Positions 4,160-28,664 of a DNA stretch of 64,000 nt are shown piece by piece (position 1 is the stretch's first letter; the number at the start of each line of letters is the position of its first letter). Both the position numbers and the translations under genes were made by a program. The notes below the pieces were generated by a model. The model did no database searches and was not told the DNA's origin. It was given only the letters and a program-made list of their open reading frames with translations. The stretch covers positions 32,001-96,000 of the forward strand of contig JBBRLQ010000005.1 in the NCBI GenBank assembly GCA_038231275.1, read 5' to 3'. The DNA comes from Polyangiales bacterium. GTDB lineage: Bacteria; Myxococcota_A; Polyangia; Polyangiales; Polyangiaceae.

Positions 4160-4807
4160 CTAGAGACCGTCGTCCTTTGCGCCGTCGGTGATCCCGAGCT
4201 CGTCCTCGCGCGAGAAGAGGCAACACTCGCTCGCAGGCGGAAAATCGCGGCACGCGCCGGGGCGGTCCGCGTAAATCCCGCAGGTGTTGTCGCGGTGGAG
4301 GTGGTGGCAGCGCTTGTTCGCGCGCAGGGTGAGCACGACGCGGCCGTCCTTGCGACGCGACCACGGCGCGTGGAGGAGCTTCGCGAGCCCGGCGCGGCGG
4401 AAGCGCGCCACGTCCTTTTCGAGCAGGACGACCTCGTTGTCCTTGCAGCACGCGCCGCACGCGAGGCAATCGAGCGCGAGGGTCCGCGTCGCACCGGGAA
4501 AGATCGAGTCGCGCTCGGCGCGGCGGCGCACGATGTCGGTCGAGTCGTCGGGGATCCGCAAAAACGCGAGACCTCGGAGGGCGCCCTTTTGCGCGACGCC
4601 CCAGCGCTGCTTGCCGAGATCGAGCACCGACCAGAGGCCGAGATCGTTCACGTCTCCCCTCTTCGGCCGAGAAAAGACGAGCGTGGCTCGCTCGTGCGCG
4701 TCGAGGATTACGGCGTGCCCGCCGGCGCGGACGTGACGCGCGGCGTTCTCGGCGAAGCGCTCGGCGAACGCGCGGACGATGGGACGAACGAAGGTCGTGG
4801 CGGACAT
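4160..4807 (-). CDS. YkgJ-family cysteine-cluster (CxxCxxCC) protein
   Basis: CLACGACC ... RCHHL ... CGIYADRPGACRDF pattern. Confidence 0.8.
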   Translation of the reverse strand: MSATTFVRPIVRAFAERFAENAARHVRAGGHAVILDAHERATLVFSRPKRGDVNDLGLWSVLDLGKQRWGVAQKGALRGLAFLRIPDDSTDIVRRRAERDSIFPGATRTLALDCLACGACCKDNEVVLLEKDVARFRRAGLAKLLHAPWSRRKDGRVVLTLRANKRCHHLHRDNTCGIYADRPGACRDFPPASECCLFSREDELGITDGAKDDGL

Positions 4808-4839
4808 CGGTGCCGGACTCTAGTGGTACCCTCGCGCGT

Positions 4840-5938: not shown

Positions 5939-5967
5939 GGAGCCCGTCCCTTTCGGGGACGGGCTCC
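5939..5967. terminator. Probable bidirectional terminator hairpin between convergent genes
   Basis: Perfect 12-bp stem GGAGCCCGTCCC-tttcg-GGGACGGGCTCC abutting the stop of 5967..6758. Confidence 0.7.
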
Positions 5968-6758
5968 TAGTGGTTGCGGGCGTGCTCGAGGCACAAGTTC
6001 CGGAACGGCTTGCACTTGTCGCAGGTGCACTTGCGGATGTCGGCGCCGTCCTCTTCGAGCTGGCCGCATACGGCGCAAGTGCGGCCGCCGGTCGGCTTCG
6101 TCTCGACCTCCGCCATCGCGCCGCGGCGCGCAGCCTGGCGGACCTGGAGGTTTCGCCCTTTGACCATGCCCGCGAGGGTCCCGCCGAAGAAGAGGAAATA
6201 GTTGGCGAGCGCCGCCGTGATCGCCGCGCGATCGAACCAATCGCCGAGCACCGCCGTGTACACGACGTAGAGGCCCGCCAGGATCCCCAGCCACTTCACG
6301 CGAATGCTGAAGGGCACGAAGATGATCGGATTGAAGGGAAAATCCGGGTACAGCGTCGCGAACGCGAGGAGGCACGACATGTTCAGCCACGAGTTGCCGA
6401 CGGCGTGTCCGGTGATCCACGCGGCGATCGTCGTGCCGACCATCCCGAGAAAATAGAAGAGGTTGAACTTGAGCGGCCCCCACTCGCTCTCGAGGCTCGT
6501 CCCGATCGTCCACGCCCACGAGAGGGAGAAGATGATGAAGAGCAGGCTGTCGGTGCGCGGCAAGAACGCGTAGGTGACGAGGCGCCAGACCTGACCGCGC
6601 GCGACCTCGTGGAGATCGAGCGCGAGCAGCGACGCGTACTCGTGGTTCAATCGCGAGAGCACGAACACGATCGCCATCCCGCCGACGATGAACTGCGTCA
6701 GGTGCTCGATCGCGAATTTTCCGTAGCTGCGCTCGAGCTTCGCGAGGAACCGTTCCAC
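5967..6758 (-). CDS. Rhomboid/Derlin-like membrane protein with C-terminal Cys/His zinc-finger-like domain
   Basis: GQVWRLVTYAF (rhomboid WR motif), LESEWG..KFNLFY, about 6 TM segments; tail CAVCG...CTCDKC...CLEH. Confidence 0.72.
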   Translation of the reverse strand: MERFLAKLERSYGKFAIEHLTQFIVGGMAIVFVLSRLNHEYASLLALDLHEVARGQVWRLVTYAFLPRTDSLLFIIFSLSWAWTIGTSLESEWGPLKFNLFYFLGMVGTTIAAWITGHAVGNSWLNMSCLLAFATLYPDFPFNPIIFVPFSIRVKWLGILAGLYVVYTAVLGDWFDRAAITAALANYFLFFGGTLAGMVKGRNLQVRQAARRGAMAEVETKPTGGRTCAVCGQLEEDGADIRKCTCDKCKPFRNLCLEHARNH

Positions 6759-6823: not shown

Positions 6824-7399
6824 TCAAGGAGGTGAGCCGCACGTGAGCCAGAGCTTGATCTTCGCGAGATCGGCGGCCGAGACGTCGGGCGTCGGCGCGA
6901 GGGGCATGTGGTTGCCGCACGCGCCTGCCGCGCCCGTCGCGAGCAGGTTGCACGTGATCGCGCTTTGCGTCGGATCGCACGAGGTCGTGAGGTACGGCTT
7001 GCCGTTGATCTTGTAGGCCTTGAGCGCGGCCAACGTCGCCGTCGCATCGGTGAGGCCCGCCGGGCTGTTGCCGCCGGTCGCGTGACAGGCCGTGCCGTTC
7101 GCGCATTTGTACGTGCCGGCCGTGGCCATCAGCGCGGCATAGATGTCCGTCGCAAAGCTCGGGCATCCGGCGGCGTCCGGCGTGCATCCCGACGACGCGC
7201 CGCCGTCACCGCTCGTCCCGCTGCTTCCGCCCGAGTCCGGCGTCGGCGGGGCTTGATCGTCGGGACTGCGACCGGCGAGGCCCCCCGCGGGACCGAAGTG
7301 AGTGGGATCGTCGTTGCAGCCGCCGAACAGCGCGATGCCTGACAGGACGAGCGGCACGAGGACGAGCGCCACCGACTTCCGCTCCAGTCGCGAGGTCAT
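6824..7399 (-). CDS. Putative monoheme cytochrome c lipoprotein with CX5CH motif
   Basis: Start MTSRLE at 7399; lipobox FGGC; CANGTACH; downstream HMP (candidate axial ligand) and LAKIKLWL..G, as in planctomycete-type cytochrome domains. Confidence 0.62.
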   Translation of the reverse strand: MTSRLERKSVALVLVPLVLSGIALFGGCNDDPTHFGPAGGLAGRSPDDQAPPTPDSGGSSGTSGDGGASSGCTPDAAGCPSFATDIYAALMATAGTYKCANGTACHATGGNSPAGLTDATATLAALKAYKINGKPYLTTSCDPTQSAITCNLLATGAAGACGNHMPLAPTPDVSAADLAKIKLWLTCGSPP

Positions 7400-7616
7400 G
7401 GTCCTATTGTGAAAGGCCGACCCCCGATCGCGCAACGACCTTTGCTGCGAATGCGCCTGCACGACGACGGCGTGGTCCAGGTGGTTCGTCGAAGATCCAC
7501 CGGATGGCTCCATCGCGGAGGCTCGTGTATCCTCAAGCCTCGGCAACATCGCGCCGTCGCACCGCCACGATCGTGGGTGCGTTTGATGCATCGACCGCCT
7601 CCGGGAGAACACCGCC

Positions 7617-7829
7617 ATGCTGGGACGCCTGCTCCTCCTCCTCGCCGTCGCATCCACCCTCGCCACCACCGCGTGCGTGAAGGTCGCCCCCTACGAGCGC
7701 GGCATGCTCGCGCATCCGACGATGACCACCGACGACGTCACCACGGGGCTCGACGAGCACGTTCGCGGCGTCTCCGAAGGGGCCGCGGGCGGCCTCGGTG
7801 GCGGCGGCGGGGGTTGTGGCTGCAACTGA
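7617..7829 (+). CDS. DUF4266 small lipoprotein
   Basis: Lipobox TTAC; V.PYERG.LA.P.M...EH....EGAAGG.GGGGGGCGCN terminus characteristic of DUF4266; GGAG RBS upstream. Confidence 0.9.
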   Translation: MLGRLLLLLAVASTLATTACVKVAPYERGMLAHPTMTTDDVTTGLDEHVRGVSEGAAGGLGGGGGGCGCN

Positions 7830-7868
7830 TCGGGCTCACCCGCTGGCAAAGTTCTGTATCGTAACCGC

Positions 7869-10118
7869 GTGGGTTACGTGGAAAGGGTCACGAGCCGTTT
7901 GCCGTCGACGCTCCGTGCCGTTCTAGCGCTGCTCATGGGCCTCGCCTTCGTCGTCGCGTCTCCCCGCGCGTGGGCGGCGGCCGAGGACGCGCGCCTGCTC
8001 GACTCCATCAACCAGGCGATGGCGGACGACTACCCGGGCAACCTCGGCGAGGCCAAGCGCAAGGTCAACGAGGCGCTCGAGAAATGCAAAGGAGGCCGCT
8101 GCGGCAACTCGGCGAAGGCGCAGGGGTTCGTCGCGCTCGGCATGATCACCTCGCAGCTGGGCGACGAGGCGGCCGCGAAGGCCGCGTTCGCCGACGCGCT
8201 CCGCTCCGACCCGCGCGTGAAGCTCCCGTCGAGCGGCACCACGCCGAACATCAAGAACCAGTGGGCCGAGGCCGTCTCACAGGCCGCGCCTCCTCCTGCT
8301 GCCCCTGCGCCCGCCGACGAACCGCCCGCCCCCGTCCCCGAGCCTCCGGCCGCGCCCGCCGCGCCCGCCGCGGGCAGCACGCTTCCGCCCGGGTGGAAGA
8401 GCCGCGAGGCCTTCGATCTCGCGACCGCCGCCGTGAAGGCGCTCGGCGCCGGGCAGTTCGAGGAGTGCGTCGAGAAGAACCGCGGCTCGCTCGAGCGCGA
8501 AGATCGCCCACGCACGCGCCTCGTCATCTCGCGCTGCGAAGAGAAGGTCGGCAGGTACCTCGACGCGCTCAAGGACGCGCAGAAGGCCCTCGAGCTCGGC
8601 ATCAAGACGCGCGACGCCGAGCTCATTCGCTTCGCGCGCCCGCGCGTCGAGGACCTCATCAAGAAGATGCCGCACGTGACCTTCGCCGTCCCCGCGAACG
8701 TCACGATCGCCGAGGTGAAGTTCGACGATCGCAACGTGCCCCTCGACGCGCTCACCAAGAAGTTCTCGATCGATCCGGGCAAGCACCACGTCGCGTCCAA
8801 CGGCCTCGCCGCCGGCGTTCCCGGCGCGATGCAGGACGACTACGACGTGAAGGAGGGCGAGCTCCTCACCGTCCGCCTCGGCCTCCAGCCGCAGCCGGGC
8901 GCGATCACGAAGGGCCAGCTCGACTGCCTCCTCAAGGCGAAGAACGACGAAGAGATCAAGAAGTGCGTCGAGAAGAGCGGCAAGAGCGTCGTGGTGAAGG
9001 CGGCGATCGAGACGAGCGCCTACGCCGACACGAACCACGTCTACGTCTTCTCGCCCGAGCTCATCGCGTCGGTCGTCTCGCCGACCGCCGGCTGGAACAT
9101 CGGCGCCAGCTACCTGCTCGACGTGATCACCGCCGCATCGCCCGACATCGTCTCGGAGGCCTCGCATCGCTTCAAAGAGAAGCGCAACGCGGCGACGCTC
9201 GGCGGCGGGTACAAACCCGGCCAGTTCGGCGTCACCGTCGGCGGGGACATCTCGATCGAGCCCGACTACGTGTCGCGCGGCGTGAGCGCGGCGGTCACCG
9301 GCGATTTCCGCGAGAAGCTCATCACCCCGCGACTCGGCGTGCACTACGCGCACGACACCATCGGCCGCGGCGGCGGCGCGACGACGCCCGGCGCGCCCAC
9401 GCCGTTCGACCATTACTCGAAGACGCTCGACAACACGCAGTTCGACGCCGGCGTCACCTGGGTCTTGTCTCCGACGGCGGTGCTCGTCACGAGCTCGTCG
9501 TTGACGCTCGAGCGCGGTGATCAGAGCAAGCCCTACCGCTATGTGCCGATGTTCGATCCGGTCACCGCCGGCAGGGTGAGGAGTGGGGAAACGGTCGATC
9601 TCGTCAACCGCTTCCGCCTTCCGATTCGCCCGCTCGAGCAGCTCCCGACGGAGCGCAACCGCTACGCCCTCGGCGTGCGCGTCGTAAAGCGCTTAGGCAA
9701 CGCAACCCTACGCATAGAAGAGCGGCTCTACACCGACAGCTGGGCGACCAAGGCCAGCACGACCGACGCGCGGTACATGATGGACCTTTCGCGCCACTTC
9801 CGCGTCTGGCCGCACCTTCGCCTGCACGCGCAGACCGGGACCGATTTCTACAACCGCGCGTACACCGCGATCGTCGATCCTGGCACGCTCGCGATCACGC
9901 TGCCCACGTACCGCACCGGCGACCGTGAGCTCGCGGCGCTCATCACCGCGACCGTGGGCGGAGGCACGCGAATCGCGCTAACCTCTCCAGAGGCGGCCGT
10001 GCAGCTCGCGGTCCTGGTGTCGGGTGACTTCATGTACTCGCGGTTCCTCAACTCGCTCTTCGTGACGACCCGCTCTGCGGTGTACGGTACGGTCGGCTTC
10101 GAAGCGGAGTTCGAGTGA
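7869..10118 (+). CDS. TPR/PEGA-like N-terminal region fused to a DUF3570-like outer-membrane beta-barrel
   Basis: Signal peptide (AWA); TPR-like helices, Pro-rich linker, PEGA-like IDPGKH segment; C-terminal half has YADT, DVITAASPD, EPDYVSR, KPYRYV, LEQLPTERNR, RLYTDSW and alternating beta-strands ending FEAEFE; directly follows DUF4266. Confidence 0.8.
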   Translation: MGYVERVTSRLPSTLRAVLALLMGLAFVVASPRAWAAAEDARLLDSINQAMADDYPGNLGEAKRKVNEALEKCKGGRCGNSAKAQGFVALGMITSQLGDEAAAKAAFADALRSDPRVKLPSSGTTPNIKNQWAEAVSQAAPPPAAPAPADEPPAPVPEPPAAPAAPAAGSTLPPGWKSREAFDLATAAVKALGAGQFEECVEKNRGSLEREDRPRTRLVISRCEEKVGRYLDALKDAQKALELGIKTRDAELIRFARPRVEDLIKKMPHVTFAVPANVTIAEVKFDDRNVPLDALTKKFSIDPGKHHVASNGLAAGVPGAMQDDYDVKEGELLTVRLGLQPQPGAITKGQLDCLLKAKNDEEIKKCVEKSGKSVVVKAAIETSAYADTNHVYVFSPELIASVVSPTAGWNIGASYLLDVITAASPDIVSEASHRFKEKRNAATLGGGYKPGQFGVTVGGDISIEPDYVSRGVSAAVTGDFREKLITPRLGVHYAHDTIGRGGGATTPGAPTPFDHYSKTLDNTQFDAGVTWVLSPTAVLVTSSSLTLERGDQSKPYRYVPMFDPVTAGRVRSGETVDLVNRFRLPIRPLEQLPTERNRYALGVRVVKRLGNATLRIEERLYTDSWATKASTTDARYMMDLSRHFRVWPHLRLHAQTGTDFYNRAYTAIVDPGTLAITLPTYRTGDRELAALITATVGGGTRIALTSPEAAVQLAVLVSGDFMYSRFLNSLFVTTRSAVYGTVGFEAEFE

Positions 10119-10687
10119 TGGCACGCACCATCCTCTGGGTCCCCACGAGCGCGTACGCGATCGCGTTCGCCGTGGCGATCGGATCGTGCGCCGATCCCGT
10201 TCATGATCTCCAAGTGAAGGCGCTTGGCGGCGAGGCGCCGAACATCCCCACCGGCGAGTACCACCGCGCCGGCCAGCCCTGCACGACGTGCCACAGCCAG
10301 TACGGGCCCGCGACCTCGCAGTTCGCGATCGGCGGCACCATCTTCCACGGCCCCGACAAGGCCATCGGCGAAGAGGGCGTGCGCGTCGAGATGGTCGACG
10401 CGACAGGCTCGCAGCGCAACGCGACCACCAACTGCGTCGGCAACTTCTTCATCCCGACGTCGGACTGGGATCCGGCGTTCCCGGTGCTCGTCATGATCCG
10501 AAAAGGTCAGCAGACACGGTCGATGAACAGCCACATCGGGCGCGAGGCGTCGTGCAACCAGTGCCACAAGGACCCGCCGAGCTTCGATTCGCCGGGCCAC
10601 ATGTCGCTCGTCGCGGTCGAGGACAACGCGCCGCCGCCGCAGGATTGCCCTGTGAGCCCCGTCGCGACCCTCCCGGGGTCCAGATGA
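10115..10687 (+). CDS. Diheme c-type cytochrome lipoprotein with a central Ig/carboxypeptidase-regulatory-like insert
   Basis: Lipobox IGSC; HRAGQPCTTCH and ASCNQCH motifs; overlaps the upstream stop. Confidence 0.8.
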   Translation: MMARTILWVPTSAYAIAFAVAIGSCADPVHDLQVKALGGEAPNIPTGEYHRAGQPCTTCHSQYGPATSQFAIGGTIFHGPDKAIGEEGVRVEMVDATGSQRNATTNCVGNFFIPTSDWDPAFPVLVMIRKGQQTRSMNSHIGREASCNQCHKDPPSFDSPGHMSLVAVEDNAPPPQDCPVSPVATLPGSR

Positions 10688-11265
10688 AGATCCTCGCGCA
10701 GAGACCGGTGGACAAGGGCCGCGTCGCCGCCGCCGCGATCGTGGTGGGCATCTTCGCCGCGGCCGCGTGCGTGTCGGTCCCGGACACCGAGCGCATGACG
10801 TACGTGGGGCCGCTCCCCAATGGGCAGACCGTGGCGCCGGACTTCGCCTCGTACAAGACCGGCGTGGACCCGTACCTCGGCAAGCGCTGCTCGACGCTCG
10901 ACTGCCACGGGCAGCTCGGTCGCGGCCTTCGCCTCTTCAGCCAGCAGGGCCTCCGCGCGTTCGACGCGTCGGGCAACGGATCCTTTCCGCTCACGAGCGG
11001 CAAGGACGCGATCACCGACGACGAGGTGCGGCAGAACTTCCTCGCCGTCGTCGGCCTCGAGCCAGAGGTCATGACGCAGGTGATGGCGGGCGGCGGCGCC
11101 GATCCGTTGAAGCTCCTCCTCCTCAAGAAGCCGCTCCTCTACGAGGGCCACAAGGGCGGACAGGTGATGATCGACACCTCCGACCCCGGCTACAAGTGCA
11201 TCGCGAGCTGGCTGGCGGGCTCGCTCGACACCAACGCGTGCACCAAGTCGCTCGAAGTGCGCTGA
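10684..11265 (+). CDS. Putative monoheme cytochrome lipoprotein with CX4CH motif
   Basis: ATG 10684 (ATGA overlap); lipobox AAAC; RCSTLDCHG; distal LLKKP...HKGG and IASWL. Confidence 0.68.
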   Translation: MKILAQRPVDKGRVAAAAIVVGIFAAAACVSVPDTERMTYVGPLPNGQTVAPDFASYKTGVDPYLGKRCSTLDCHGQLGRGLRLFSQQGLRAFDASGNGSFPLTSGKDAITDDEVRQNFLAVVGLEPEVMTQVMAGGGADPLKLLLLKKPLLYEGHKGGQVMIDTSDPGYKCIASWLAGSLDTNACTKSLEVR

Positions 11266-11280
11266 CGCAAAGCGTACGAC

Positions 11281-11325
11281 AAAAGAGAAACGCCCCGGGC
11301 GAGCTCGTCGCGCCGGGGCGTCGCT
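11281..11325 (-). terminator. Rho-independent terminator for the minus-strand operon (possibly bidirectional)
   Basis: Stem ACGCCCCGG (11290-11298) / CCGGGGCGT (11313-11321), followed on the minus strand by TTCTCTTTT. Confidence 0.7.
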
Positions 11326-11341
11326 TCGTCTGCGTGCCGCC

Positions 11342-12736
11342 TCAGGTCACGACCGCGTTGACGAGGCCGGGGAACGCGGGACCGCGGTAGAAGTCCTGCA
11401 CGCGGCGGAGATCGCCCTTCGCGACGGCGAACGCGGCAGCGGCGGCGGCCGTGGGGCCCATCGACGCGGTCGTGATGGTGTTGCCGTTGGTCGCGACGTT
11501 GTTGCCGGTCTGCGGGTCGAACGTGTTGACGCTGTTGTTCGCGCCGTACGATCCGAACCACCCCGTCTTGAGGTAGCCGGCGCCGTAGACGTAGAGCCAG
11601 TTGGCGTTGCCGTTCGTGTTGTCGGGCCAGCCGCTGCGCTCGAGCGGATCCTTCGGGAGATCTCCGCCGATCGTCATGACGAGGTTGTCGGCCAGGCTCT
11701 TCGAAGAGCAGCCCGGGTCCGGCGTCGCGAGCGCCATGGTCATGAACGCGTCGAAGTGCTTGCCGAGCGCCATGGCCATGTCCGCCGGCATCTGATCGCC
11801 GCCGCCGAACGCGCCGTGCGGATCGTCCAAAAATGGGCTCATGTTGACCATCGACGTCAACCCGAGCTTGAACGCCTTCAGCGCCGTGATGAGCGTGTGC
11901 GCATGGTCCTTCAGCGCCGTCGAGGTGCCGGCGTTGACGCCGAATGCTGCGTCGTCCGCCGCCGTGGGGGCGAGCTGCGCCGCGAGGTTCTTGCCGAGGA
12001 GGTTCGCGGCGATTTTGCCGGTCTCGTAGCCCTTCGCGACCGACGGGCGGCCGGCGGCGGCGTTGAGGCCGAGGAACGCCTTGTAATACGCCTCGTGCAG
12101 CGCCGCGTTGCTCGGCGTGCTCAGGAGCGTCTTGCTCGCGACGCTGTCGAACAGGCCGACGAGGCCCGCCGCGCTGCCGACGCTGGCCATCGACGGAGCG
12201 CCGGGCGCGGTGCCGTAGATGGTCGGGTTGATGGCGATGACGGGGAGGAGCGTCGGCGTCGCCTGCTGAATCGCGGCGAGCGCGGCGAGGAGGCCCACGC
12301 CGGTCGCGATCTCGTGCTTGGGCGTGTTGGTGTGGCCGCCGTTGTTGCCGCCCATGAGGCCGGTCATCTGTCGGTTGCCGGGGAGCGTCGCGAACGGCGA
12401 GTAGGTGCCGCGCACCCACGGGCGATCGGTGCCCGTGACCGCCTTGCCCTTGCCGATCTCGTAAAACGCGTAGTTCGCTTGCGTCCCGGTGGCCTGCTCT
12501 ACGTGCGGGAAGAGCAGCGTGTACCAGGAGAGCGCGCCGTTGCCGGCGTTGATGTGGATCGAGCGGTTCGTGAGGGTGCACGCCGCTTGATCGGCGAGCG
12601 CGCTGCCTCCGATGCCCGAGAGCGCGTCGATGAAGCGCACGCGCTCGAGGCCGAGCCCGACCGCCGCCGCCGCGCTCCACCGGATGAAGTCTCGTCGGCC
12701 CGAGCCGCGCAGATCTTTGAGTCGCTGGTCCGCCAT
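11342..12736 (-). CDS. Tat-exported DUF1501/DUF1552-like protein
   Basis: Start MADQRL at 12736 with AGGAG RBS; twin-arginine motif GRRDFI; DDPHG, LADNLVMTIGGD, GAGYLKTG resemble DUF1501 C-terminal motifs; lies downstream of a DUF1588/1585-like gene, the usual context. Confidence 0.6.
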   Translation of the reverse strand: MADQRLKDLRGSGRRDFIRWSAAAAVGLGLERVRFIDALSGIGGSALADQAACTLTNRSIHINAGNGALSWYTLLFPHVEQATGTQANYAFYEIGKGKAVTGTDRPWVRGTYSPFATLPGNRQMTGLMGGNNGGHTNTPKHEIATGVGLLAALAAIQQATPTLLPVIAINPTIYGTAPGAPSMASVGSAAGLVGLFDSVASKTLLSTPSNAALHEAYYKAFLGLNAAAGRPSVAKGYETGKIAANLLGKNLAAQLAPTAADDAAFGVNAGTSTALKDHAHTLITALKAFKLGLTSMVNMSPFLDDPHGAFGGGDQMPADMAMALGKHFDAFMTMALATPDPGCSSKSLADNLVMTIGGDLPKDPLERSGWPDNTNGNANWLYVYGAGYLKTGWFGSYGANNSVNTFDPQTGNNVATNGNTITTASMGPTAAAAAAFAVAKGDLRRVQDFYRGPAFPGLVNAVVT

Positions 12737-12747
12737 GACGATTCTCC

Positions 12748-13440
12748 TTACTCGCAGGTGTGAGCGGCTTCGAGGAGCGCCGCGATGGCAAGTTGAACGC
12801 CCTGGGCCTGGGTCGCCCCGCCCGTGACGGCGTCGACGACGGCCTGGTTCGCGACGGTGACGTGGTCGTCGGTCGCCAGCGTCCCCGTGAGGCACGAAAT
12901 CCCGTCCTTCGTGAACTTCCCGCTCGCGTCGGCGACGATCACGCCCTGGCAGCCCGTGGACGTCGCCGCGTTGGCGAAGACCTCGGGCGCCGCCGCCACG
13001 AAGATGTCGAACTGCTTCGCGAGCGCGCTCGTCGACGCGAGGAGCGCCTCGGGCGCGCGGCCCGAGTAGTTCGCGACGCCGAGCGACGAGCCGCTCGACT
13101 TGTAGATCGTGAGCGCGTTCGTGTTGCCGGTGAGCTTCGCGCCGCGCGTGTTCAGGATGGACCCGAGCGACGCGTACGTGATCTTCGTGCAGCCGTGGTA
13201 CCGCGCCGCCGTTACGCCGCCGGTGGGATCCGACGCCTTCGGTCGGCCGCCCGGATCGGCGTGCTCGTACTCGCCGACTTGGTTCGGCGGGTCGAAATCG
13301 TGGTGGTACATCGGCGACGAGCCCTGCGTGTCGGCCTCGGTCGCGCTGCCGATCTTGTCGTTGGGTCCGCTGCCGGCGGCCGAGCACCCGCTGGCGGCGA
13401 GGCCGGCGGTGGCGATGAGGGTCAGAAGAATGCGTTTCAT
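12748..13440 (-). CDS. Hypothetical lipoprotein with paired cysteines
   Basis: MKRILL...ASGC lipobox; GGAG RBS; ends AAHTCE. Confidence 0.75.
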   Translation of the reverse strand: MKRILLTLIATAGLAASGCSAAGSGPNDKIGSATEADTQGSSPMYHHDFDPPNQVGEYEHADPGGRPKASDPTGGVTAARYHGCTKITYASLGSILNTRGAKLTGNTNALTIYKSSGSSLGVANYSGRAPEALLASTSALAKQFDIFVAAAPEVFANAATSTGCQGVIVADASGKFTKDGISCLTGTLATDDHVTVANQAVVDAVTGGATQAQGVQLAIAALLEAAHTCE

Positions 13441-13459
13441 TGGAGTCTCCTTTTCCCTC

Positions 13460-14713
13460 TCAGAATTTCGTGAAGTCTTCGGACGTGAACACGTTACGGA
13501 TGACGCGCTTCAGCTTCATCCCGTTGCCCGTGAAGTCTTTCACGAGAGGATCGGTGACGGCAGGCGGAATCGACGCGAGGTCGTTCACGATGTCGCCGCG
13601 CGAGAGCGCCCAGTTCCAGACGCGGTCGACGGCGCAGTGGGCCACGGCGGGGTCGGCGGCGATCGCCGCGCCGAGCGACGGAATGTCGGTCACCGCGACG
13701 CCGTTGCGCCACGCGAACGTCTGCTTGCCGGCGGGGAGCCAGTCGCCGAGGACCGAGGTGGGGTTGCCGGTCGACGGCGTCTTCACCTGGATGGCGGTCT
13801 GGTACGCGCCGTTCGCGTCGAAGAACGCGAACATCGGCGCCATGTGGTTGATCGTCGTGTGGCAGTTGGCGCAGATGATCGAGCTCGTGTCCTGGAAGTC
13901 GATTTTCGCGTTCGGCGTGTTCGTCTTTCCGGTGACGGTCTGGAAATCCCAGGGGCTCGTGTAGAGGCCGGCGCCCATCGGCGTCGACGCGCCGAGCTCG
14001 GCGGGGAACTTCGTGCAGGCGAAGGTCTCCTGGATGAAGCGGACGCGGCGGAAGGCCATGTTCGCGTAGAACTGCGACATGAGGCCGGGGTCGGTGAGGA
14101 CGCCGGCGGTGGGCGCCGTGCCCGGACAGCTCGCGGGGGTGAAGGTGCCGCCCGCGTACGTCGGGCAGGTGTTCGTCGCCGTCGTGAAGAGGTCGGTGTA
14201 CGGCTGGTCGTTGATGACGACCATCGCCGCGAACGTCGCCGCGGTGTCGTAGCTCGGCGCGCCTTGCCTCGCGTTGCCGCCCATCGGGCCGGTGCGGAAC
14301 GTGTCGCGGAACCACTGGATCATGCGCGTCGCGAAGCGCGGGTCGCTCGTGAGGATCTTGTCGATGTACGCCTCGTAGGTGACCTTCTGGTCGGCCTGCG
14401 CCTTGCCGTCGAGCGTCTTCACGTCCGCGAGCGTCGGGAGCTCGCCCGTGAGCTTGAGGCTCGCGCTGCGCATCGCCGCGCCGTAGTCGAACACGCGGGT
14501 GTCGACGTACGCGGGGGGCTGCTCGACGGGCCCGCCAGAAGCGCCGCCACCGCCGCCGCCGCCGCCTGCGCCACCACTGGAGCCCGGGTCACCGGAGGTG
14601 CCGCCGTTGCCGAGCGCGTTCGGGTCGTCGGACCCCGAGCCGCACGCCATCAGCGATGCCGCGATGCCGAGCGCGGCGAGCTTCGCGCTGAGTCGCAGAA
14701 TGCTTCGTCGCAT
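13460..14713 (-). CDS. DUF1588/DUF1585-like CxxCH cytochrome lipoprotein
   Basis: Lipobox LMAC; Gly linker; SLKLTGELPT, ETFAC, ICANCHTTINHMAP.F..FD..G, LKRVIRNVFTSEDF. Alternative start near 14755. Confidence 0.7.
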   Translation of the reverse strand: MRRSILRLSAKLAALGIAASLMACGSGSDDPNALGNGGTSGDPGSSGGAGGGGGGGGASGGPVEQPPAYVDTRVFDYGAAMRSASLKLTGELPTLADVKTLDGKAQADQKVTYEAYIDKILTSDPRFATRMIQWFRDTFRTGPMGGNARQGAPSYDTAATFAAMVVINDQPYTDLFTTATNTCPTYAGGTFTPASCPGTAPTAGVLTDPGLMSQFYANMAFRRVRFIQETFACTKFPAELGASTPMGAGLYTSPWDFQTVTGKTNTPNAKIDFQDTSSIICANCHTTINHMAPMFAFFDANGAYQTAIQVKTPSTGNPTSVLGDWLPAGKQTFAWRNGVAVTDIPSLGAAIAADPAVAHCAVDRVWNWALSRGDIVNDLASIPPAVTDPLVKDFTGNGMKLKRVIRNVFTSEDFTKF

Positions 14714-14763
14714 CGTGTGCCTGCCTTTCTGTTCCGCGTGCCGTTCCATGGCCATTGTCTCTT

Positions 14764-16029
14764 TCATTCGCCGGCGAGCCAGCTGTTGATCTGCGCGGTG
14801 TAGCCACCCACGTCGCTGACGGTGCCGCCGCCGTGGTTTCCGCTCTGCCCCGTCGGGTGCAGGATGATGGCGCTCTTGGTCTTGTCGGTAAGGTTCACCT
14901 TCGTAAGCGCCTGGGCGCACGCCGAGGCGTAGTTGGGGGAGCCCCCCACGAGATCGTTCAAGTCGAGCGCGCCGTCGCCGCCGCCGCCGGCCTTGTGGCA
15001 GCCGGCCGTGCAGTTCGGCGTGAGCGCGTTGCCGTTCACCTGGCCGCCGCGGAACACGTCGGCGATCGCCTGGAAGCCCGACACGTTCTTGCAGCCGCCG
15101 CCGCCCGCGCCCGCGTCGCCGCCCGCGACGGTGCCCGCGCCGATCTTGGCGAACTCGATCTGGAGCTTGTCGGTCGCCTGCCAGTTGAAGCCGGTGAGGA
15201 TGAACGTGCCGGGGCCGACGGCGATCGACTTGCCTGCGCCAGCGGTGTCGTCGACGTTCGAGCCGTTGTCGGCCGGATCCTCGACCGCCTTCGCCGTGGC
15301 GTCGGCGGGGACCTGCACGAAGATCGGGTGCGTGATGTGGATGCCGCCCGCCGCGGGCCCGACCAGCTTCACCGAGCTGAGCGCGAGGATCTTGCCGGAG
15401 ATGGTCGCGTTGAACGTGATCTGCGCGCCGGGAATGCCGCCGGAGACCGTGCTCAGATCGATCGCGTTGGCTGCGCCGCCGACGATCGCGATCGGCGCCG
15501 TCGCCGGGAGCTTCGCGCCCTTCAGCGCGGCCGCTTCGACGTCGAGCCACTTCTTGACCTTGTCGCCGAGGTTGCCGGTGCCGTCGGGAGTGACGAGCGC
15601 CGCGCCCGTGTGCTGGCCCTTCGTGAAGAGGCGGCTCTGGAGCGTGTCCTGAACGATGATCTTCTTGTCGCCGACCTGTGACGTGTCGTACGTCTTGATC
15701 GAGAGGTACGTGTCCGGCCCCTTGAGCCAGAGCGGCGCCGAGGTGCTGCCCTCGTGGCAGTTGGACCCGCCGCACGACGTCTTGAGGTCCGGCTCGAGCT
15801 CGCGGTACAGCTTCTCGGCGAGCTTGAGCGCCGTCGCATTGCCGCCGTCGGGATCGAGGAGGCTGCCGTCGCCGGGATCGACCGTTCCACTGTCGACCGC
15901 GCCGCTCGACCCGCCGCCGCCGTTGCCGCCGAGGAGGCTGTCGGCCGCTCCGTCTCCGCACGCGACCGCCGTGACTGCCGCGAGAGCGATCGCGCCGGTG
16001 AGAAGGGCGAACGCACGCGACGCGAGCAT
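14764..16029 (-). CDS. Putative diheme lipoprotein with CX4CH and CX3CH motifs
   Basis: Lipobox AVAC; SCGGSNCH...GQHTG...KKWL and NCTAGCH...GNHGGG...NSWL, two similar domains separated by a beta-rich insert. Start may be 16068. Confidence 0.68.
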   Translation of the reverse strand: MLASRAFALLTGAIALAAVTAVACGDGAADSLLGGNGGGGSSGAVDSGTVDPGDGSLLDPDGGNATALKLAEKLYRELEPDLKTSCGGSNCHEGSTSAPLWLKGPDTYLSIKTYDTSQVGDKKIIVQDTLQSRLFTKGQHTGAALVTPDGTGNLGDKVKKWLDVEAAALKGAKLPATAPIAIVGGAANAIDLSTVSGGIPGAQITFNATISGKILALSSVKLVGPAAGGIHITHPIFVQVPADATAKAVEDPADNGSNVDDTAGAGKSIAVGPGTFILTGFNWQATDKLQIEFAKIGAGTVAGGDAGAGGGGCKNVSGFQAIADVFRGGQVNGNALTPNCTAGCHKAGGGGDGALDLNDLVGGSPNYASACAQALTKVNLTDKTKSAIILHPTGQSGNHGGGTVSDVGGYTAQINSWLAGE

Positions 16030-16390
16030 CCCCTTTCCAGTACGGCTGCGATCCAGTTTCACGGTCATTTTCAGCGGTCCGTGCACGATGAATGCACAGG
16101 TGAGACCAACCCGATCACACTGAAAATTCCGGACGTATTTGATGAGCCTACATCGTAGCTATCGACGTCGCTGGATCATCGTCGACCGCCCAGATGGCCC
16201 ATGCAACGGCAGCTTTCGAGCATGGACGGAGCCCGATCCACGTCGCCATCCGGCGCGCGGCGAGCGTCCTCCAACCCGTCATGTCCACCCGTCACTGCTA
16301 TGGTGTGAGGAGGTGCTGCGGCGGTTGCAGCGAAGTGCCGTGACCTCGCCGCGGACGTGAAGGAAACCCGAGGACGCGGCCATTCTTCGG

Positions 16391-17383
16391 GTGGGGGTTG
16401 AAGCAAGCGTCGTGGACCAGCCGGAGCCTCCCAAGATCGTGCTCGAGCAGCCGGCGCCGTGCCTGGACGGACGCGCCGCGCAGGAGGTGCTCGTCCGCAC
16501 GCTCGCGCCGAGTCAGGCGCCGGGCGCGGCATGGACGGTGAGCGCGCGCGTGAGGAGAGATCGCACCGCGCTCGTCGCCGAAGGTGAGATCACCGACAGC
16601 GTCGGCGCGGCGGTCGCCCATCGCTCCATTCGCAAAGACACGACCGAGTGCAGCGGCGTCGTGCGCGCGCTCGGCGTGTGGGCGTCGCTGGTGCTCGACG
16701 AGGAAGTGCGTCGCGCCGCTGCGCCTCCGCCTCCTCCTCCTCCCGAGCCCGAGACGAGAGCGCCGTGGCCGTCGCCCGAGCCGCCCGCGGCGGCGGCGCC
16801 CGAGCAAGCGCTCTTCCTCAAGAACCCGAAAGACAGGCGCTCGTTCGAGATCGGGATGGGGACCAGCTACCAGTATGGCCTGCTCGGCGACGGCGGCGCC
16901 GCCATCGGCGGCGGTCACGTGTTCACGGTCTTCGAGATCGACGGCGGGTGGTTCCTTCGTCCGACGATCGCGGCTGGGCGATCGCTGCGCGACGTTGCGG
17001 CGTCGTCCGATCTGAGCGCGACATGGGGCGCGGCGCGCTTCGACGCGTGCCGGCGGATGCCTGGAAACTACACGGAACGTCGCGGCATCCAGATGGACGT
17101 GTGCGGCGGCATCGAGAGCGGCCTTCTCGCGTTCGACTCCGGCGGCAACGGCCGGAGCCCGACGGCGGGTCAGGTGCAAAAGGACGTGACGCCGCTGCTC
17201 GCTCCTGGCGCGTCGCTGGGCCTTCGCGGCGAGCTTGCGAGCGATCTCTCCGCCGAGGTGCGTGGCCTCGTCGGCGTCAATCTTCTGCGCGATACGTTTT
17301 ACGAGAGCCCCGACGGCGTGAAGCTCCAGACCTTGCTCGTGTACGCGCGCCTCGAGCTCGCAGTTTCGTGGAGGGTGCGGTGA
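16391..17383 (+). CDS. Hypothetical protein with Pro-rich linker and C-terminal beta-barrel-like domain
   Basis: Alternating beta-strand pattern ending ARLELAVSWRVR; overlaps the ECF sigma start; start codon uncertain. Confidence 0.6.
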   Translation: MGVEASVVDQPEPPKIVLEQPAPCLDGRAAQEVLVRTLAPSQAPGAAWTVSARVRRDRTALVAEGEITDSVGAAVAHRSIRKDTTECSGVVRALGVWASLVLDEEVRRAAAPPPPPPPEPETRAPWPSPEPPAAAAPEQALFLKNPKDRRSFEIGMGTSYQYGLLGDGGAAIGGGHVFTVFEIDGGWFLRPTIAAGRSLRDVAASSDLSATWGAARFDACRRMPGNYTERRGIQMDVCGGIESGLLAFDSGGNGRSPTAGQVQKDVTPLLAPGASLGLRGELASDLSAEVRGLVGVNLLRDTFYESPDGVKLQTLLVYARLELAVSWRVR

Positions 17384-17970
17384 TCGAAGATACCGGCGCT
17401 GTCGAGCGCACGTCGATTACGTCGGTTCCCGCCGTGGCGCCGAACGCCGCGTCGCGCGAGTCGATCTTCCGCTCGATGTACGAGGCCCACGTCGACTTCG
17501 TGTGGCGAAATTTGCGGCGCCTCGGCGTCGAGCTCGGCGACGTCGACGACAAGACACAAGAGGTCTTCGTCATCGCGCACCGCCGGTTCGTCGAGTTCGA
17601 GGATCGCGGCCACGGTCCGCGCGCGTGGCTCTTCCAGATCGTCATCCGCGTCGCGTCCGACGCGCGCCGCCACAAGCGCCGCCACCCTGAGGATCCCGAC
17701 AGCGGCAAGCTCCTCGAGCGCGAGTCGATCGAGCCGCCGCAAACGCAGGCCCTCGCGCGCCGCGAAGCGCTCGAGCGCCTGGACCGCGCGCTCGGCACCC
17801 TCGAGGTCGGCCGCCGCGCCGTCCTGGTCCTCCACGAGATCGAAGAAATGACCGCACCGGAAATCGCGCAGAGCCTCGGAATTCCCCTCAACACCGTTTA
17901 CTCGCGCCTCCGCGTGGCGCGCGCCGAGCTCGAAGCGGCGCTGTCCCGCCAGGAAGGAGCCTCACGATGA
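17380..17970 (+). CDS. ECF sigma-70 family sigma factor
   Basis: GTG 17380; FVWRNLRRLGV, DDKTQEVF, RAWLFQI (region 2); LVLHEIEEMTAPEIA..LGIPLNTVYSRLRVAR (region 4). Confidence 0.93.
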   Translation: MIEDTGAVERTSITSVPAVAPNAASRESIFRSMYEAHVDFVWRNLRRLGVELGDVDDKTQEVFVIAHRRFVEFEDRGHGPRAWLFQIVIRVASDARRHKRRHPEDPDSGKLLERESIEPPQTQALARREALERLDRALGTLEVGRRAVLVLHEIEEMTAPEIAQSLGIPLNTVYSRLRVARAELEAALSRQEGASR

Positions 17971-18740
17971 GCGATCTCTCGACGAGCACCCGCGCCCTTT
18001 TGGACGCCGCGAAAGCGGACGGACCGTCCAAGCTGGCGAAGGCGAAAATCTGGGGAGGCGTGGCGGCGACGACGGCGGCGGCGGCCGGGGGCGGAGCCGC
18101 GGCAGGGAGCGTGGCGGCGTTCGGCTCGGGCAAGCTGCTGATGTTCGGCGCGCTGTTCGGGAGCGCGGTGACGGTCGGTCTCGCGATGGCGCTGATGCAC
18201 GTGGGTCCGATGTCGCCGGAGATCACCGAGCCGCGCGCGGACATGCAGCTCGCGACGCCGCGGCCGGTGCGGGATCCGGCGGCGCCGGCGCAGCCGATTC
18301 GTGCGGGTGGGCCGCAGGACGATCTCACCGTGGAGCAAGACGACGCGCCCGTGGCGACGCCGGTGGGGAACGCCAACGCAGGCGCAAACGCAGCGCCGAA
18401 GGCGGCGCCGGCGGTGGTCGTGAATCCGGCGCAGGGTGCGGCGGCGTCGAAGGCAAAGGCCGCGACCGCGAAGGCGGCGAGGACCGCGGCGGAGAAGGAC
18501 GATCTGCTCGAGCGCGAGTCGCTCCTCGTGTCCGAAGCGCGCGGGGCGCTGGTTCGTGGAGATGCGCGCGCGGCGTTGTCAGCGGTCCACGCGGCGCAGG
18601 CGCTCGACAGCCACGCGCTCGACCCGGAAGAGCTGTCGCTCGAAGCGCGCGCGCTGCGTGCGATGGGAAGCACGGACGCGGCGGACGCGGTCGAATCGCG
18701 CTTGCGGACGCGTTACCCCGATCACGCGCTCGCGCGCTGA
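17967..18740 (+). CDS. Putative membrane-anchored anti-sigma factor with C-terminal TPR-like module
   Basis: ATGA overlap with the sigma gene; short N-terminus, TM segment, Ala/Pro linker, LERESLLVSEARGALVRGDARAAL...RYPD tail. Confidence 0.7.
   Translation: MSDLSTSTRALLDAAKADGPSKLAKAKIWGGVAATTAAAAGGGAAAGSVAAFGSGKLLMFGALFGSAVTVGLAMALMHVGPMSPEITEPRADMQLATPRPVRDPAAPAQPIRAGGPQDDLTVEQDDAPVATPVGNANAGANAAPKAAPAVVVNPAQGAAASKAKAATAKAARTAAEKDDLLERESLLVSEARGALVRGDARAALSAVHAAQALDSHALDPEELSLEARALRAMGSTDAADAVESRLRTRYPDHALAR

Positions 18741-24700: not shown

Positions 24701-24704
<4 letters not shown>
23829..24704 (-). CDS. tadB: TadB / T2SS-F-family inner-membrane platform protein
   Basis: GTG 24704; QLDGFLLALANALKS, EMKVGSSLDQAL, GGNLPKVLE, TAEGRFQ. 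Confidence 0.9.
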
Positions 24705-26458
<1,754 letters not shown>

Positions 26459-26491
26459 GACAGGGTTTCTGGATCTGCCTGGTTTTTGAAG

Positions 26492-27817: not shown

Positions 27818-28611
27818 TGCCCCTCCGGCAAGCGCGTCGCGCGCTGCGGGGTGTAGTTGCGGCTCCCCACCGGATCGCGCCCGTCGCGGTTGAAGAGGAG
27901 CTGCGTATTGTAGTCGGGGATGCGATCGATCGTGCGCTGATCCTCCGCGTTTCGCAGCGCGACGGTGATCCGGCCTTTTTCCTGGGCCGCGGCGAGGAGC
28001 TGCGCCTCGGGCAAGGTGAGGCTCAACGTGAGGAGGTTGTCGCGATCGCTGACGACGCCGTTCTTCTCGGCGGGGCTCGTGTCGCTCGACGTGTCGAGAC
28101 CGGTCGCGAGCACGAGCACGCGCTGAAGGAGCACCGCGGCCGCGCGCGTCTCGCTCTGCTGGCTCTGGCTCATGACGGCGATGACGTCGACGTAGTTGCC
28201 CGGCCGAATGAGCGCGACGCTCGAGTCCTCGCGCGACGTCTTGATCGTGACGGCGCGGTTGCCGGGCTGCACGATGTCCGACAAATCGCGGCGATCCTCG
28301 CTCGCGGTGATGAGGTCGGTCCACATCAAGGTCTGGTTGGCCTGCACGGTGTTGCCCACGCGCAGGCCCAGGATCTTCGCCTTCTCCACCTCTTTGATGG
28401 CGCGATCCTCGACGTACGCCTGCGGCACCTCGCGCGTTGCGACGAGCTCATCGGTGATGACCTTGCCGCGCTCGATGGGCTTAACGGCCATCAGCAGCTT
28501 GATTTTGGCGCCGCCCGACGCGTCGACTTCGAACCTGCGTTGGTACAAAACCAGCAGGAAGACGCCGAGCATGCCGACGATCAGCGCAAGGACGAGCGCA
28601 CGACGGTTCAT
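27814..28611 (-). CDS. cpaB: Flp pilus assembly protein CpaB/RcpC
   Basis: N-terminal TM, SAF domain, PGNRAVTI, IRPGNYVDVI, LLQRVLVLA, ALRNAED. Confidence 0.92.
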   Translation of the reverse strand: MNRRALVLALIVGMLGVFLLVLYQRRFEVDASGGAKIKLLMAVKPIERGKVITDELVATREVPQAYVEDRAIKEVEKAKILGLRVGNTVQANQTLMWTDLITASEDRRDLSDIVQPGNRAVTIKTSREDSSVALIRPGNYVDVIAVMSQSQQSETRAAAVLLQRVLVLATGLDTSSDTSPAEKNGVVSDRDNLLTLSLTLPEAQLLAAAQEKGRITVALRNAEDQRTIDRIPDYNTQLLFNRDGRDPVGSRNYTPQRATRLPEGQ

Positions 28612-28664
28612 AGGTGCTCTGTAAGCGTACCCCTATTTGCCGAAACCTGGAAGGCCCAGGAATT

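Follow-up and report, generated by a model that had tools for sequence, protein, structure and literature searches.

Haem c sites in genomes are found almost entirely by scanning for CXXCH, and the known haem motifs with long spacers between the two Cys residues depend on dedicated lyases. Described non-canonical motifs are CX3CH and CX4CH (as in cytochromes c3), the long CX11CH, CX15CH (MccA) and CX17CH, and CXXCK; the motif list of PMC11492766, in its accessible text, gives CX3CH and CX4CH as naturally occurring and includes the three long forms, CX5CH, CX6CH and CX9CH being absent from that list, and our literature search found no haem paper for any of these last three. The structure of FoxE from Rhodobacter ferrooxidans SW2 (PDB 5mab, 5mvo) has been solved; it is a c-type cytochrome with two haems, His/Met-ligated, and a stabilising disulfide (accessible text of PMC10654088). 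For PSCyt1 domains (PF07635, ‘Planctomycete cytochrome C’), experimental haem evidence was not found in the literature searched; in PVC bacteria, genes for PSCyt2 and PSCyt3 adjoin genes of unknown families (accessible text of PMC5615132). DUF3570 proteins form a redox family that is flavinylated by ApbE in other bacteria, a proven ApbE substrate being that of Chlorobium luteolum (accessible text of PMC8238504).

Here we describe a window, the whole 64,000-nucleotide stretch of DNA analysed, from an uncultured myxobacterium, in which three predicted exported lipoproteins, designated A, B and C, hold four cytochrome-c-like domains (one in A, one in B, and C1 and C2 in C) whose motif Cys residues are separated by three to five residues in place of the canonical two. 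We consider it rather probable that all four represent a divergent form of class I c-type cytochrome domain, of the FoxE/PSCyt1 kind, with the haem ligation proposed below.

Gene groups and motifs

The three genes belong to two conserved and separable gene groups. Module 1 consists of gene A and, divergent from and adjoining it, an operon of a TPR-DUF3570 gene, a dihaem cytochrome gene and gene B, while module 2 comprises gene C and the genes for a PSCyt2/PSCyt3-like CXXCH lipoprotein, a further lipoprotein and a protein with a Tat-like N-terminus.

6824..7399, minus strand: gene A, predicted lipoprotein with a single cytochrome-c-like domain of the FoxE/PSCyt1 kind (motif, homologue alignment, profile matches)
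6845-6856, minus: invariant Trp inside KLWL of A
6902-6907, minus: invariant Met-Pro of A
7082-7105, minus: CANGTACH (CX5CH) of A (sequence)
7869..10118, plus: TPR and DUF3570 protein, at the head of the DUF3570-dihaem-B operon (Pfam DUF3570 87.2 bits, cutoff 25)
9120-9140, plus: DVITAAS motif of the TPR-DUF3570 protein (sequence)
10118..10687, plus: dihaem c-type lipoprotein, with canonical CTTCH at 10280-10294 and CNQCH at 10553-10567
10684..11265, plus: gene B, predicted lipoprotein with a fixed CX4CH (homologue alignment, model, hhalign)
10888-10908, plus: CSTLDCH (CX4CH) of B, family consensus C-[GS]-T-L-D-C-H-G
11146-11160, plus: GHKGG of B with its invariant His (110 homologues)
11203-11214, plus: ASWL of B with its Trp (sequence)
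11342..12703, minus: final module 2 gene, its product starting with a twin-arginine, Tat-like N-terminus that scores under the cutoff of Pfam TAT_signal
12748..13440, minus: lipoprotein of module 2 without a Pfam or NCBIfam match
13460..14713, minus: PSCyt2/PSCyt3/PSD2-like (DUF1549/DUF1588/DUF1585) lipoprotein with canonical CANCH at 13859-13873
14764..16068, minus: gene C, predicted lipoprotein with cytochrome-like domain 1, a beta-sandwich and cytochrome-like domain 2 (alignments, model, hhalign)
14767-15093, minus: C2, with CTAGCH (CX3CH) at 14995-15012 and a His in GNHGGG at 14824-14841
about 15124-15501, minus: beta-sandwich of C, between C1 and C2
about 15520-15837, minus: C1, with CGGSNCH (CX4CH) at 15754-15774 and a His in GQHTG at 15604-15618

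Across the 38 plausible open reading frames of the window (15,591 aa), C-X2-6-CH occurs seven times, always within the interval from 6.8 to 16.1 kb and in no more than five genes there; because it is found only in these clustered genes, and its two Cys and His are invariant in homologues, the motifs represent more than chance. The four stretched ones (one CX5CH, two CX4CH and one CX3CH) lie in the genes and at the positions that the initial annotation had assigned to them, and the strings it had listed downstream are likewise all present in the A, B and C domains, both those around a His (GNHMP, GHKGG, GQHTG and GNHGGG) and those ending the terminal helices (KLWL, ASWL, KKWL and NSWL).

In module 1, the start of the dihaem gene overlaps the DUF3570 stop and its own stop overlaps the start of B, so that translation of B is coupled to that of a canonical dihaem cytochrome. 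B is carried by at least 287 species genomes and is accompanied by the TPR-DUF3570 gene at 76 and by the dihaem gene at 78 of 80 loci, two CXXCH motifs being present in 75 of the 78 dihaem orthologues. Of the module 2 genes, that for the Tat-like protein, which matched no Pfam or NCBIfam family, occurs at 30 of the 80 loci, that for the family-less lipoprotein at 25, and that for the PSCyt2-like lipoprotein at 24; the last protein passes Pfam PSCyt2 (31.2 bits, cutoff 29.8), with PSCyt3 (22.8) and PSD2 (17.9) both below cutoff. The neighbours of gene A encode rhomboid and DUF3570 proteins. A, B and C themselves matched no Pfam or NCBIfam family. Their predicted export, as expected of c-type cytochromes, is read from signal peptides with lipoboxes, whose Cys is invariant in A (C19, 119/119 rows) and at least 90% conserved in B (C29), the lipobox of C being AVAC.

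Relationships among the four domains

BLASTP comparisons among the window’s own domains are not significant (E 0.23 and 1.3), so that their kinship is visible only at the level of profiles. There, hhalign gives 95.2% and 86.6% for A against C1 (two comparisons), 86.9% for A against C2 and 88.8% for C1 against C2. When searched against solved structures, the A-family profile (119 sequences) finds FoxE (5mab/5mvo; E=1.8e-7, 34.6 bits) in two stretches that align CH-G, M-P-l-G and W..GAP. The C2 profile yields 43 PDB matches at E<=10, short and located around the motif, of which 42 are named c-type cytochromes (CcoP being the best at 5e-4, and FoxE at E=0.057), and the C1 profile three, FoxE not among them. 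No Pfam cutoff is reached by any of the 119 A-family members, and same-locus CXXCH orthologues of A also remain below threshold (Cytochrome_CBB3 21.4 bits against 27 at locus L047), but two CXXCH relatives of A do exceed it: P0134 with PSCyt1 (40 bits, cutoff 22), and P0250 with Cytochrome_CBB3 (45.6, cutoff 27), PSCyt1 (38.4, cutoff 22) and Cytochrom_C (30.7, cutoff 21.3). Sequence comparison thus supports the placing of A, C1 and C2 in one family with kinship to class I c-type cytochromes.

The position of B is less clear-cut. Its alignment with C2 (58.4%, E=9.6e-5) extends over 92 columns spanning the whole domain and is collinear through the N-helix, C..CHG, GLRL/LDL, S..ii.kP, H.GG and W, whereas its alignments with C1 (15%) and with A (45% over 24 columns) cover the motif region only. 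B could therefore be a lipoprotein family with a fold of its own, carrying CX4CH with or without haem and sharing the downstream pattern through convergence or chance. Consistent with this, the B profile has zero matches in the PDB; Foldseek, despite a confident model (pLDDT 89.3, built without haem), returned no PDB match at E<=0.001 (best E 5.9); and the B spacer, unlike those of A and C, is constant in both length and sequence (G/S-T-L-D in 110/110 homologues). The model of C, mediocre (pLDDT 65.2) and also built without haem, likewise gave no match at E<=0.001, its weak matches coming from the beta-sandwich alone. A separate origin of B is nonetheless rather doubtful in view of the domain-wide collinearity with C2, a helix order that agrees between the B model and the C domains (models without haem), the canonical dihaem cytochrome as operon partner and, as a lead only, a language-model search in which the nearest neighbours of a B homologue were PSCyt1-bearing clusters (0.93, 0.90). 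We therefore tie B to the other three domains with moderate confidence. The single paralogous cytochrome family envisaged in the initial annotation holds up for A, C1 and C2 and is less firmly supported for B, and the structural comparison it had suggested produced, from haem-free models of B and C, a fitting helix order but no cytochrome-c match.

Spacer plasticity and proposed haem attachment

Tolerance of variable Cys spacing, which had been proposed from the window itself, is borne out by tabulation across homologues, with X2 to X9 in the A family and X2 to X6 in C1 and C2. The A family numbers 355 cluster representatives at E<=0.001, and among the 150 listed, for which spacing was tabulated, 97 have X4, 40 X5, five X6, one X9 and two X2, the remainder being two fragments lacking the region and three multidomain proteins in which X2 is the sole spacing. 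CX5CH is thus common, and it recurs in nine of 38 same-locus orthologues of A (X4 in 25, X2 in four), one X5 case lying in the complete chromosome of an isolate, Labilithrix luteola DSM 27648 (locus L007). About ten spacing changes are placed on a 39-row tree, with X4 and X5 intermixed within one well-supported clade. In the 22 complete same-locus orthologues of C, C1 has X3 (17), X2 (four) or X6 (one), and C2 has X2 (16) or X4 (six), so that orthologues of A and C at the same locus in other genomes span X2 to X6. G, A, S, T, N and D together make up 89% of the spacer residues.

The surrounding residues behave quite differently. All 132 A representatives keep both Cys, the His, the Met-Pro and the Trp; C69, C74, H75 and H156 of B are invariant in 110/110 homologues; and C1 and C2 keep Cys, Cys and His in 23/23 rows each, together with a His 42-54 residues past the motif (again 23/23 each) and no conserved Met. 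Each of the four domains thus has the conserved Cys-Xn-Cys-His of a c-type cytochrome and a conserved candidate distal ligand. The distal His (or Met) suggested earlier proves to be a His in B, C1 and C2; in A just 12 of 132 representatives retain the GNHMP His, and it is the Met of the Met-Pro that follows which is universal. With overall identity at about 30%, such constancy of the motif Cys and His and of the distal Met-Pro or His is what haem ligation would be expected to produce. Plasticity of the Cys spacing at orthologous positions, from X2 to X9 around fixed Cys, Cys and His, is accordingly supported by the alignments.

We propose the following layout for each domain: a helix at the N-terminus that leads to the putative haem-binding motif, then a loop region, the loop bearing the distal ligand and, at the C-terminus, a helix containing the conserved Trp. 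Once A, B and C were exported across the inner membrane as lipoproteins, periplasmic haem would be joined to both motif Cys residues through thioether bonds, with the His after the second Cys as proximal ligand, and the one to three extra spacer residues, nearly all small, would loop outward as in known CX3CH and CX4CH sites. In A, the invariant Met of Met-Pro would be the distal ligand, giving His/Met ligation like that of FoxE; the conserved His of B, C1 and C2 would provide bis-His ligation and, probably, a lower redox potential. More tentatively, two copies of single-domain A might associate so that each supplies the Met for its partner's haem, as the FoxE repeats do. Spacer length has drifted repeatedly between 2 and 9 in Polyangiales-type Myxococcota while the ligand residues stayed constant. 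Judging by gene context, the role of these modules is most likely extracytoplasmic electron transfer.

Descent from CXXCH cytochromes with subsequent loss of haem, the Cys pair now forming a structural or redox-active disulfide or, with the His and the Met or His, a metal site (such as Cu, Zn or Fe), would agree with the extracytoplasmic and Cys-rich nature of the three proteins, with the failure of Foldseek to find a cytochrome fold in the B and C models, and with our finding no report of spacings 5, 6 and 9 as haem sites. It would also agree with the lack of a dedicated lyase nearby, since no Pfam domain of a CcsA/CcmF-type lyase was detected in the eight cluster proteins, in 30 further window open reading frames or in 15 scanned from loci L007, L011 and L019. 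We nevertheless judge such a loss unlikely. The accepted haem motifs found in nature include CX3CH and CX4CH (accessible text of PMC11492766), same-locus orthologues and multidomain relatives retain CXXCH with recognition by cytochrome models (below threshold for the orthologues), and the ligand set is invariant in otherwise divergent proteins. Moreover, a metal site of exact geometry would hardly be expected to let X4 and X5 alternate among close relatives.

Haem attachment through a single Cys is known elsewhere, in the XXXCH cytochromes of Euglenozoa. By that precedent, haem might be held by the second Cys, beside the His, and the first Cys kept for another reason such as a folding disulfide, which would explain why the Cys-Cys distance drifts from X2 to X9 next to a fixed C-H dipeptide. 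This appears highly improbable, as the first Cys is present in 132/132 A, 110/110 B and 23/23 C1 and C2 sequences, no partner Cys covaries with it in position, and the spacers, being short and built of small residues, could bulge outward with a thioether on either side. A does have up to five conserved Cys besides the motif, including a pair at its domain ends (129/132 each), so that other disulfide arrangements are conceivable in this family.

We suggest tentatively that Polyangiales-type myxobacteria may need no dedicated lyase for these sites, their usual apparatus for cytochrome c maturation attaching haem to Cys-Xn-Cys-His over a range of n that starts at 2 and extends at least to 6, perhaps to 9; acceptance of any n would render spacer length a nearly neutral and frequently changing character of the FoxE/PSCyt1-like domain. 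The A, B and C families escape CXXCH scans, Pfam and NCBIfam, and, should they bind haem, cytochrome counts for Myxococcota are underestimates and the list of natural attachment motifs gains CX5CH, CX6CH and possibly CX9CH. Orthologues that differ only in spacer length offer a ready series for studying substrate recognition by haem lyases, would allow the tuning of haem geometry and potential to be tested and, with a natural range of 2 to 9, constitute a test set for haem attachment to proteins.

Comparison with known systems

[quoted passage not shown] With the known non-canonical haem c motifs the four domains share a His and two Cys that are separated by more than two residues; there, however, spacing is fixed for each haem site, whereas here orthologues vary from 2 to 9.

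PSCyt1 is approached through the CXXCH relatives of A, which exceed the family cutoff, and through module 2, where gene C adjoins the PSCyt2/PSCyt3/PSD2-like gene in company with the family-less Tat-type protein, a layout that echoes the pairing of PSCyt2 and PSCyt3 with genes of unknown families in PVC bacteria (accessible text of PMC5615132). The window proteins differ in falling below the PSCyt1 cutoff, in carrying the cytochrome-like domains on a separate, unfused protein, in spacing other than CXXCH and, for B, C1 and C2, in a His in place of Met-Pro.

FoxE is a two-domain chain with canonical CXXCH motifs, in which the Met of each repeat ligates the haem of its counterpart, and is encoded in a foxEYZ operon; A is a predicted single-domain lipoprotein with CX4-6CH, and the Pfam domains of its neighbours among the window open reading frames suggest no FoxY- or FoxZ-type protein. 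The A family is nevertheless similar to FoxE in sequence, sharing C..CH-G, the Met-Pro-(l)-Gly loop and the W..GAP helix, and its Cys pair at the domain ends may parallel the stabilising disulfide of FoxE (accessible text of PMC10654088), as the His/Met ligation proposed for A from its sequence would parallel that of FoxE. Through A and its relatives, FoxE and PSCyt1 become linked, and a large domain family of unknown function is thereby connected to a solved cytochrome.

Genes and haem-type motifs between 6.8 and 16.1 kb

Eight genes lie between 6.8 and 16.1 kb of the window, whose G+C content is ~69%, and by their export signals seven of them are read as lipoproteins, and the eighth is taken to have a twin-arginine (Tat-like) N-terminus. 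Three of the lipoprotein genes, A, B and C, encode stretched haem motifs, denoted CXnCH or Xn for n residues between the two haem-anchoring cysteines (X2 in the canonical CXXCH), with two cytochrome-like domains, C1 and C2, in C:

6824-7399, minus strand: gene A
7869-10118, plus strand: TPR-DUF3570 protein
10118-10687, plus strand: canonical dihaem protein
10684-11265, plus strand: gene B
11342-12703, minus strand: Tat-type protein, 453 aa, last of the set headed by C; no Pfam or NCBIfam match
12748-13440, minus strand: lipoprotein, 230 aa, third in that set, after C; no Pfam or NCBIfam match
13460-14713, minus strand: PSCyt2/PSCyt3/PSD2-like protein with CANCH, second, after C
14764-16068, minus strand: gene C, first in transcription order of this minus-strand set

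Start and stop codons overlap at the DUF3570-dihaem and dihaem-B junctions. The neighbour of gene A is a rhomboid-family protease whose C-terminal tail is rich in Cys (5967-6758, minus strand), a position kept in 34 of 80 related loci. A protein with a putatively Zn/Fe-chelating CxxCxxCC domain is encoded upstream of the cluster both here (4163-4819, minus strand) and in Labilithrix luteola (L007:3086-3742). Three plus-strand genes come after C: 16391-17383 encodes a protein of no named family, 17398-17967 an ECF sigma factor and 17967-18737 a possible anti-sigma protein. The set recurs beside C in 7-11 of the 80 loci. Further on lie Tad/Flp-type pilus genes (24704-32831, minus strand), among them those for RcpC/CpaB, a type IV prepilin peptidase and an FHA-domain T2SSE ATPase.

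C-X2-6-CH, looked for in 38 plausible window ORFs totalling 15,591 aa, is confined to five of the eight genes, with seven motifs in total. The four stretched ones are where the initial annotation had placed them, namely CANGTACH in A (7082-7105), CSTLDCH in B (10888-10908), and CGGSNCH (15754-15774) and CTAGCH (14995-15012) in C, and the downstream strings it had described, a His-containing segment and a terminal Trp-Leu, are likewise found in the sequences. HMMs of all families revealed no further domain copy in six-frame ORFs of the window. In a four-way alignment the domains share only Cys, His, Asp, Gly, Trp and Leu, and profiles were needed because pairwise BLASTP among them was non-significant (E 0.23 and 1.3).

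Kinship with c-type cytochromes

No Pfam or NCBIfam model matched A, B or C, and none of 119 A-family members reached a Pfam cutoff. The relatives recovered by word-based searches number 13 for C, 110 for B and 8 for A; a HMMER search with the A alignment returned 355 cluster representatives at E<=0.001, and our A-family counts rest on the 150 of these that were listed. With the B motif as seed, 287 loci were confirmed across genomes, 80 of which provide the locus counts; the nearest are all from Myxococcota, mostly Polyangiaceae and Labilithrix MAGs, and the closest among the 80 (L001) has ~80% protein identity to the window.

The domains had been proposed to form one cytochrome-related group of four, and on profile evidence cytochrome homology is shown for three of them. 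Against the PDB, the A-family profile matches the dihaem c-type cytochrome FoxE (5mab/5mvo, E=1.8e-7), both repeats of which align to it over the CH-G, Met-Pro-x-Gly and W..GAP elements. FoxE is described as having two haems, His/Met ligation and a stabilising disulfide (PMC10654088). Multidomain proteins with canonical CXXCH among the A-profile matches exceed curated Pfam cutoffs: P0134 scores 40 bits for PSCyt1 (cutoff 22), and P0250 scores 45.6 for Cytochrome_CBB3 (27), 38.4 for PSCyt1 (22) and 30.7 for Cytochrom_C (21.3). P0134, a relative of 960 aa, contains five PSCyt1-like CNGCH repeats in tandem together with three CHRD domains. Of 43 PDB sequences matched by the C2 profile at E<=10, 42 are c-type cytochromes by name, with only two below 1e-3 and the matches in general confined to short stretches around the motif; PDB sequence searches with the whole-C and C1 profiles gave nothing useful. 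Profile comparison by hhalign gave 95.2% in one run and 86.6% in another for A and C1, 88.8% for C1 and C2, and 86.9% for A and C2, values that depend on alignment depth, since shallow alignments had earlier given 39% (A and C1) and 45% (A and C2), a deeper A alignment alone lowered A and C2 to 4.5%, and this last pair scored high only with C2 aligned from 22 same-locus orthologues.

By the same comparisons B is the outlier among the four. Its profile has no match in the PDB, and hhalign aligns it to A and C1 over the motif region only; against C2 it reaches 58.4% (E=9.6e-5) in a collinear alignment of 92 columns that takes in the whole domain. Long alignments of B forced with mact 0.01 are collinear and non-significant (E ~0.01). 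Protein Atlas entries of B homologues are annotated only as "lipoprotein family". When a B homologue was used in a language-model search, PSCyt1-bearing clusters were nearest among the named ones (0.93, 0.90), a weak lead only. The dihaem neighbour was considered as a domain of the same type and rejected, its hhalign matches being limited to signal-peptide and motif regions.

In the confident B model (pLDDT 89.3, pTM 0.79), the motif directly continues a helix; a long loop and three short helices follow, then a loop with the conserved His and a C-terminal helix bearing the Trp. The mediocre C model (pLDDT 65.2) has two helical end domains with this common element order, and a beta-sandwich between them. 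The initial annotation had looked to predicted structures for a cytochrome c fold, and Foldseek against the PDB with these models yielded none, nothing being matched at E<=0.001 and the beta-sandwich of C alone matching weakly. This outcome, obtained with haem-free models, would count tentatively against a cytochrome fold.

Spacer length and predicted haem ligands

The plasticity of motif spacing is the strongest result of the analysis. Among the 150 A-family representatives listed, the spacer is X4 in 97, X5 in 40, X6 in 5, X2 in 2 and X9 in one (P0146), the rest being three multidomain proteins with X2 only and two fragments without the motif region. The full-length CX9CH protein has nine spacer residues that are all Gly, Ala, Ser or Thr, and it keeps Met-Pro and W..CGAP. 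Seven of eight close A homologues have X5 and one X4, and where A stands beside the DUF3570 operon in genomes of other species (n=38), 25 have X4, nine X5 and four X2. Domain 1 in close homologues of C (n=12) is X4 in nine and X6, X3 and X2 in one each, and domain 2 (n=13) is X3 in 11 and X2 in two; among 22 complete same-locus orthologues, domain 1 is X3 in 17, X2 in four and X6 in one, and domain 2 is X2 in 16 and X4 in six. The C-terminus of C2 also differs by clade (loci L004-L074, orthologues of 14767-15093), reading W-L-x-G-E in the clade of the window, W-V/I-N-K/A/N-E in a second, and N-N-x-x-V-F-F without the Trp helix in a third.

The best tree of 39 A domains, made with the spacer left out, needs 10 spacing changes against a shuffled mean of 12.8, its well-supported branches alone requiring far fewer; X4 and X5 alternate inside one well-supported clade of close relatives, where they are clean one-codon differences in DNA. 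Spacers consist to 89% of G, A, S, T, N or D. One CX5CH is present in the finished chromosome of an isolate, the harmless, cultured soil bacterium Labilithrix luteola DSM 27648, and the pattern is therefore not an assembly artefact. In this isolate A is CX5CH and B is CX4CH, and C contains CX3CH and CXXCH. B has a near-fixed spacer, CX4CH in 110 of 110 homologues (its 80 of 80 across the loci is circular, the scan pattern having been the motif itself), and the dihaem neighbour retains two CXXCH in 75 of 78.

Both Cys, the His, Met-Pro and the Trp are present in all 132 A-family representatives compared. Of the distal His or Met originally proposed, the Met fits A: Met-Pro occurs in 132/132 and the His of GNHMP in just 12/132, which should make Met the distal ligand, as it is in FoxE and PSCyt1. 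Two further conserved Cys pairs of A are likely disulfides, one at the ends of the domain (129/132 each) and one with counts of 120 and 119. In B, C69, C74, H75 and H156 are invariant, and C1 and C2 have a His 42-54 residues past the motif in 23 of 23 rows, without a conserved Met; at the position homologous to the Met of A, the C1 domain in the window has Leu and that of some homologues Met. From these conservation patterns, A is predicted to have His/Met ligation, and B, C1 and C2 bis-His. Invariant ligands, together with orthologues that have canonical CXXCH, speak against the main rival, in which the domains would no longer carry haem, their Cys pair forming a disulfide or binding a metal, and which we consider improbable. 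We rather favour, with some confidence, a mechanism in which two thioethers would hold the haem, the spacer would loop out, His/Met or bis-His would provide the axial ligands, and the proteins would serve electron transfer in the envelope.

The kind of domain is itself already known. Allen et al. (2009) reportedly found the E. coli Ccm system able to cope with CX3CH and CX4CH in test proteins. Non-canonical haem motifs named in a recent survey are CXCK, CX2CK, CX3CH, CX4CH, CX11CH, CX15CH and CX17CH (PMC11492766). Full-text literature, with subscription journals largely outside it, yielded no haem paper for CX5CH, CX6CH, CX7CH or spelled-out forms. What appears to be new is a spacer varying freely at one orthologous site, and the CX5CH, CX6CH and CX9CH motifs.

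Two gene modules and their known counterparts

Beside B, the 80 loci have the dihaem gene in 78 and the DUF3570 gene in 76; A is present in 38, and genes of the C module (C with the three minus-strand genes after it) in 24-30, the Tat-type protein and the 230-aa lipoprotein being conserved with C in 25-30. The A-B and C modules are separable units, because histidine kinases, a protease, an aldehyde dehydrogenase and other unrelated genes intervene between them in three loci (L007, L011, L019). The DUF3570 protein, 749 aa vs ~420 usual, has an N-terminal TPR extension. In place of [ST]GA[ST], it contains a single DVITAAS (9120-9140), by its residues a Gly-to-Ala variant of that ApbE flavinylation motif, and most of 76 DUF3570 orthologues have D-x-[IVL]-[ST]-A-A-S. 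No ApbE, cytochrome maturation or lyase genes were found among the ORFs scanned in the window and these three loci. In other bacteria, ApbE flavin transferase is described as acting on DUF3570, and flavinylated proteins and cytochromes as interchanging, according to the authors of that study (PMC8238504).

In the literature searched, the combination of DUF1501, DUF1553 and a cytochrome was not found, and "Planctomycete cytochrome C" occurred only in a paper on a dinoflagellate genome and the preprint of that paper. The PVC arrangement, described as PSCyt domains with PSCyt2/PSCyt3/PSD proteins beside genes of unknown families, is there said to be of unknown function (PMC5615132). The C module resembles this arrangement.
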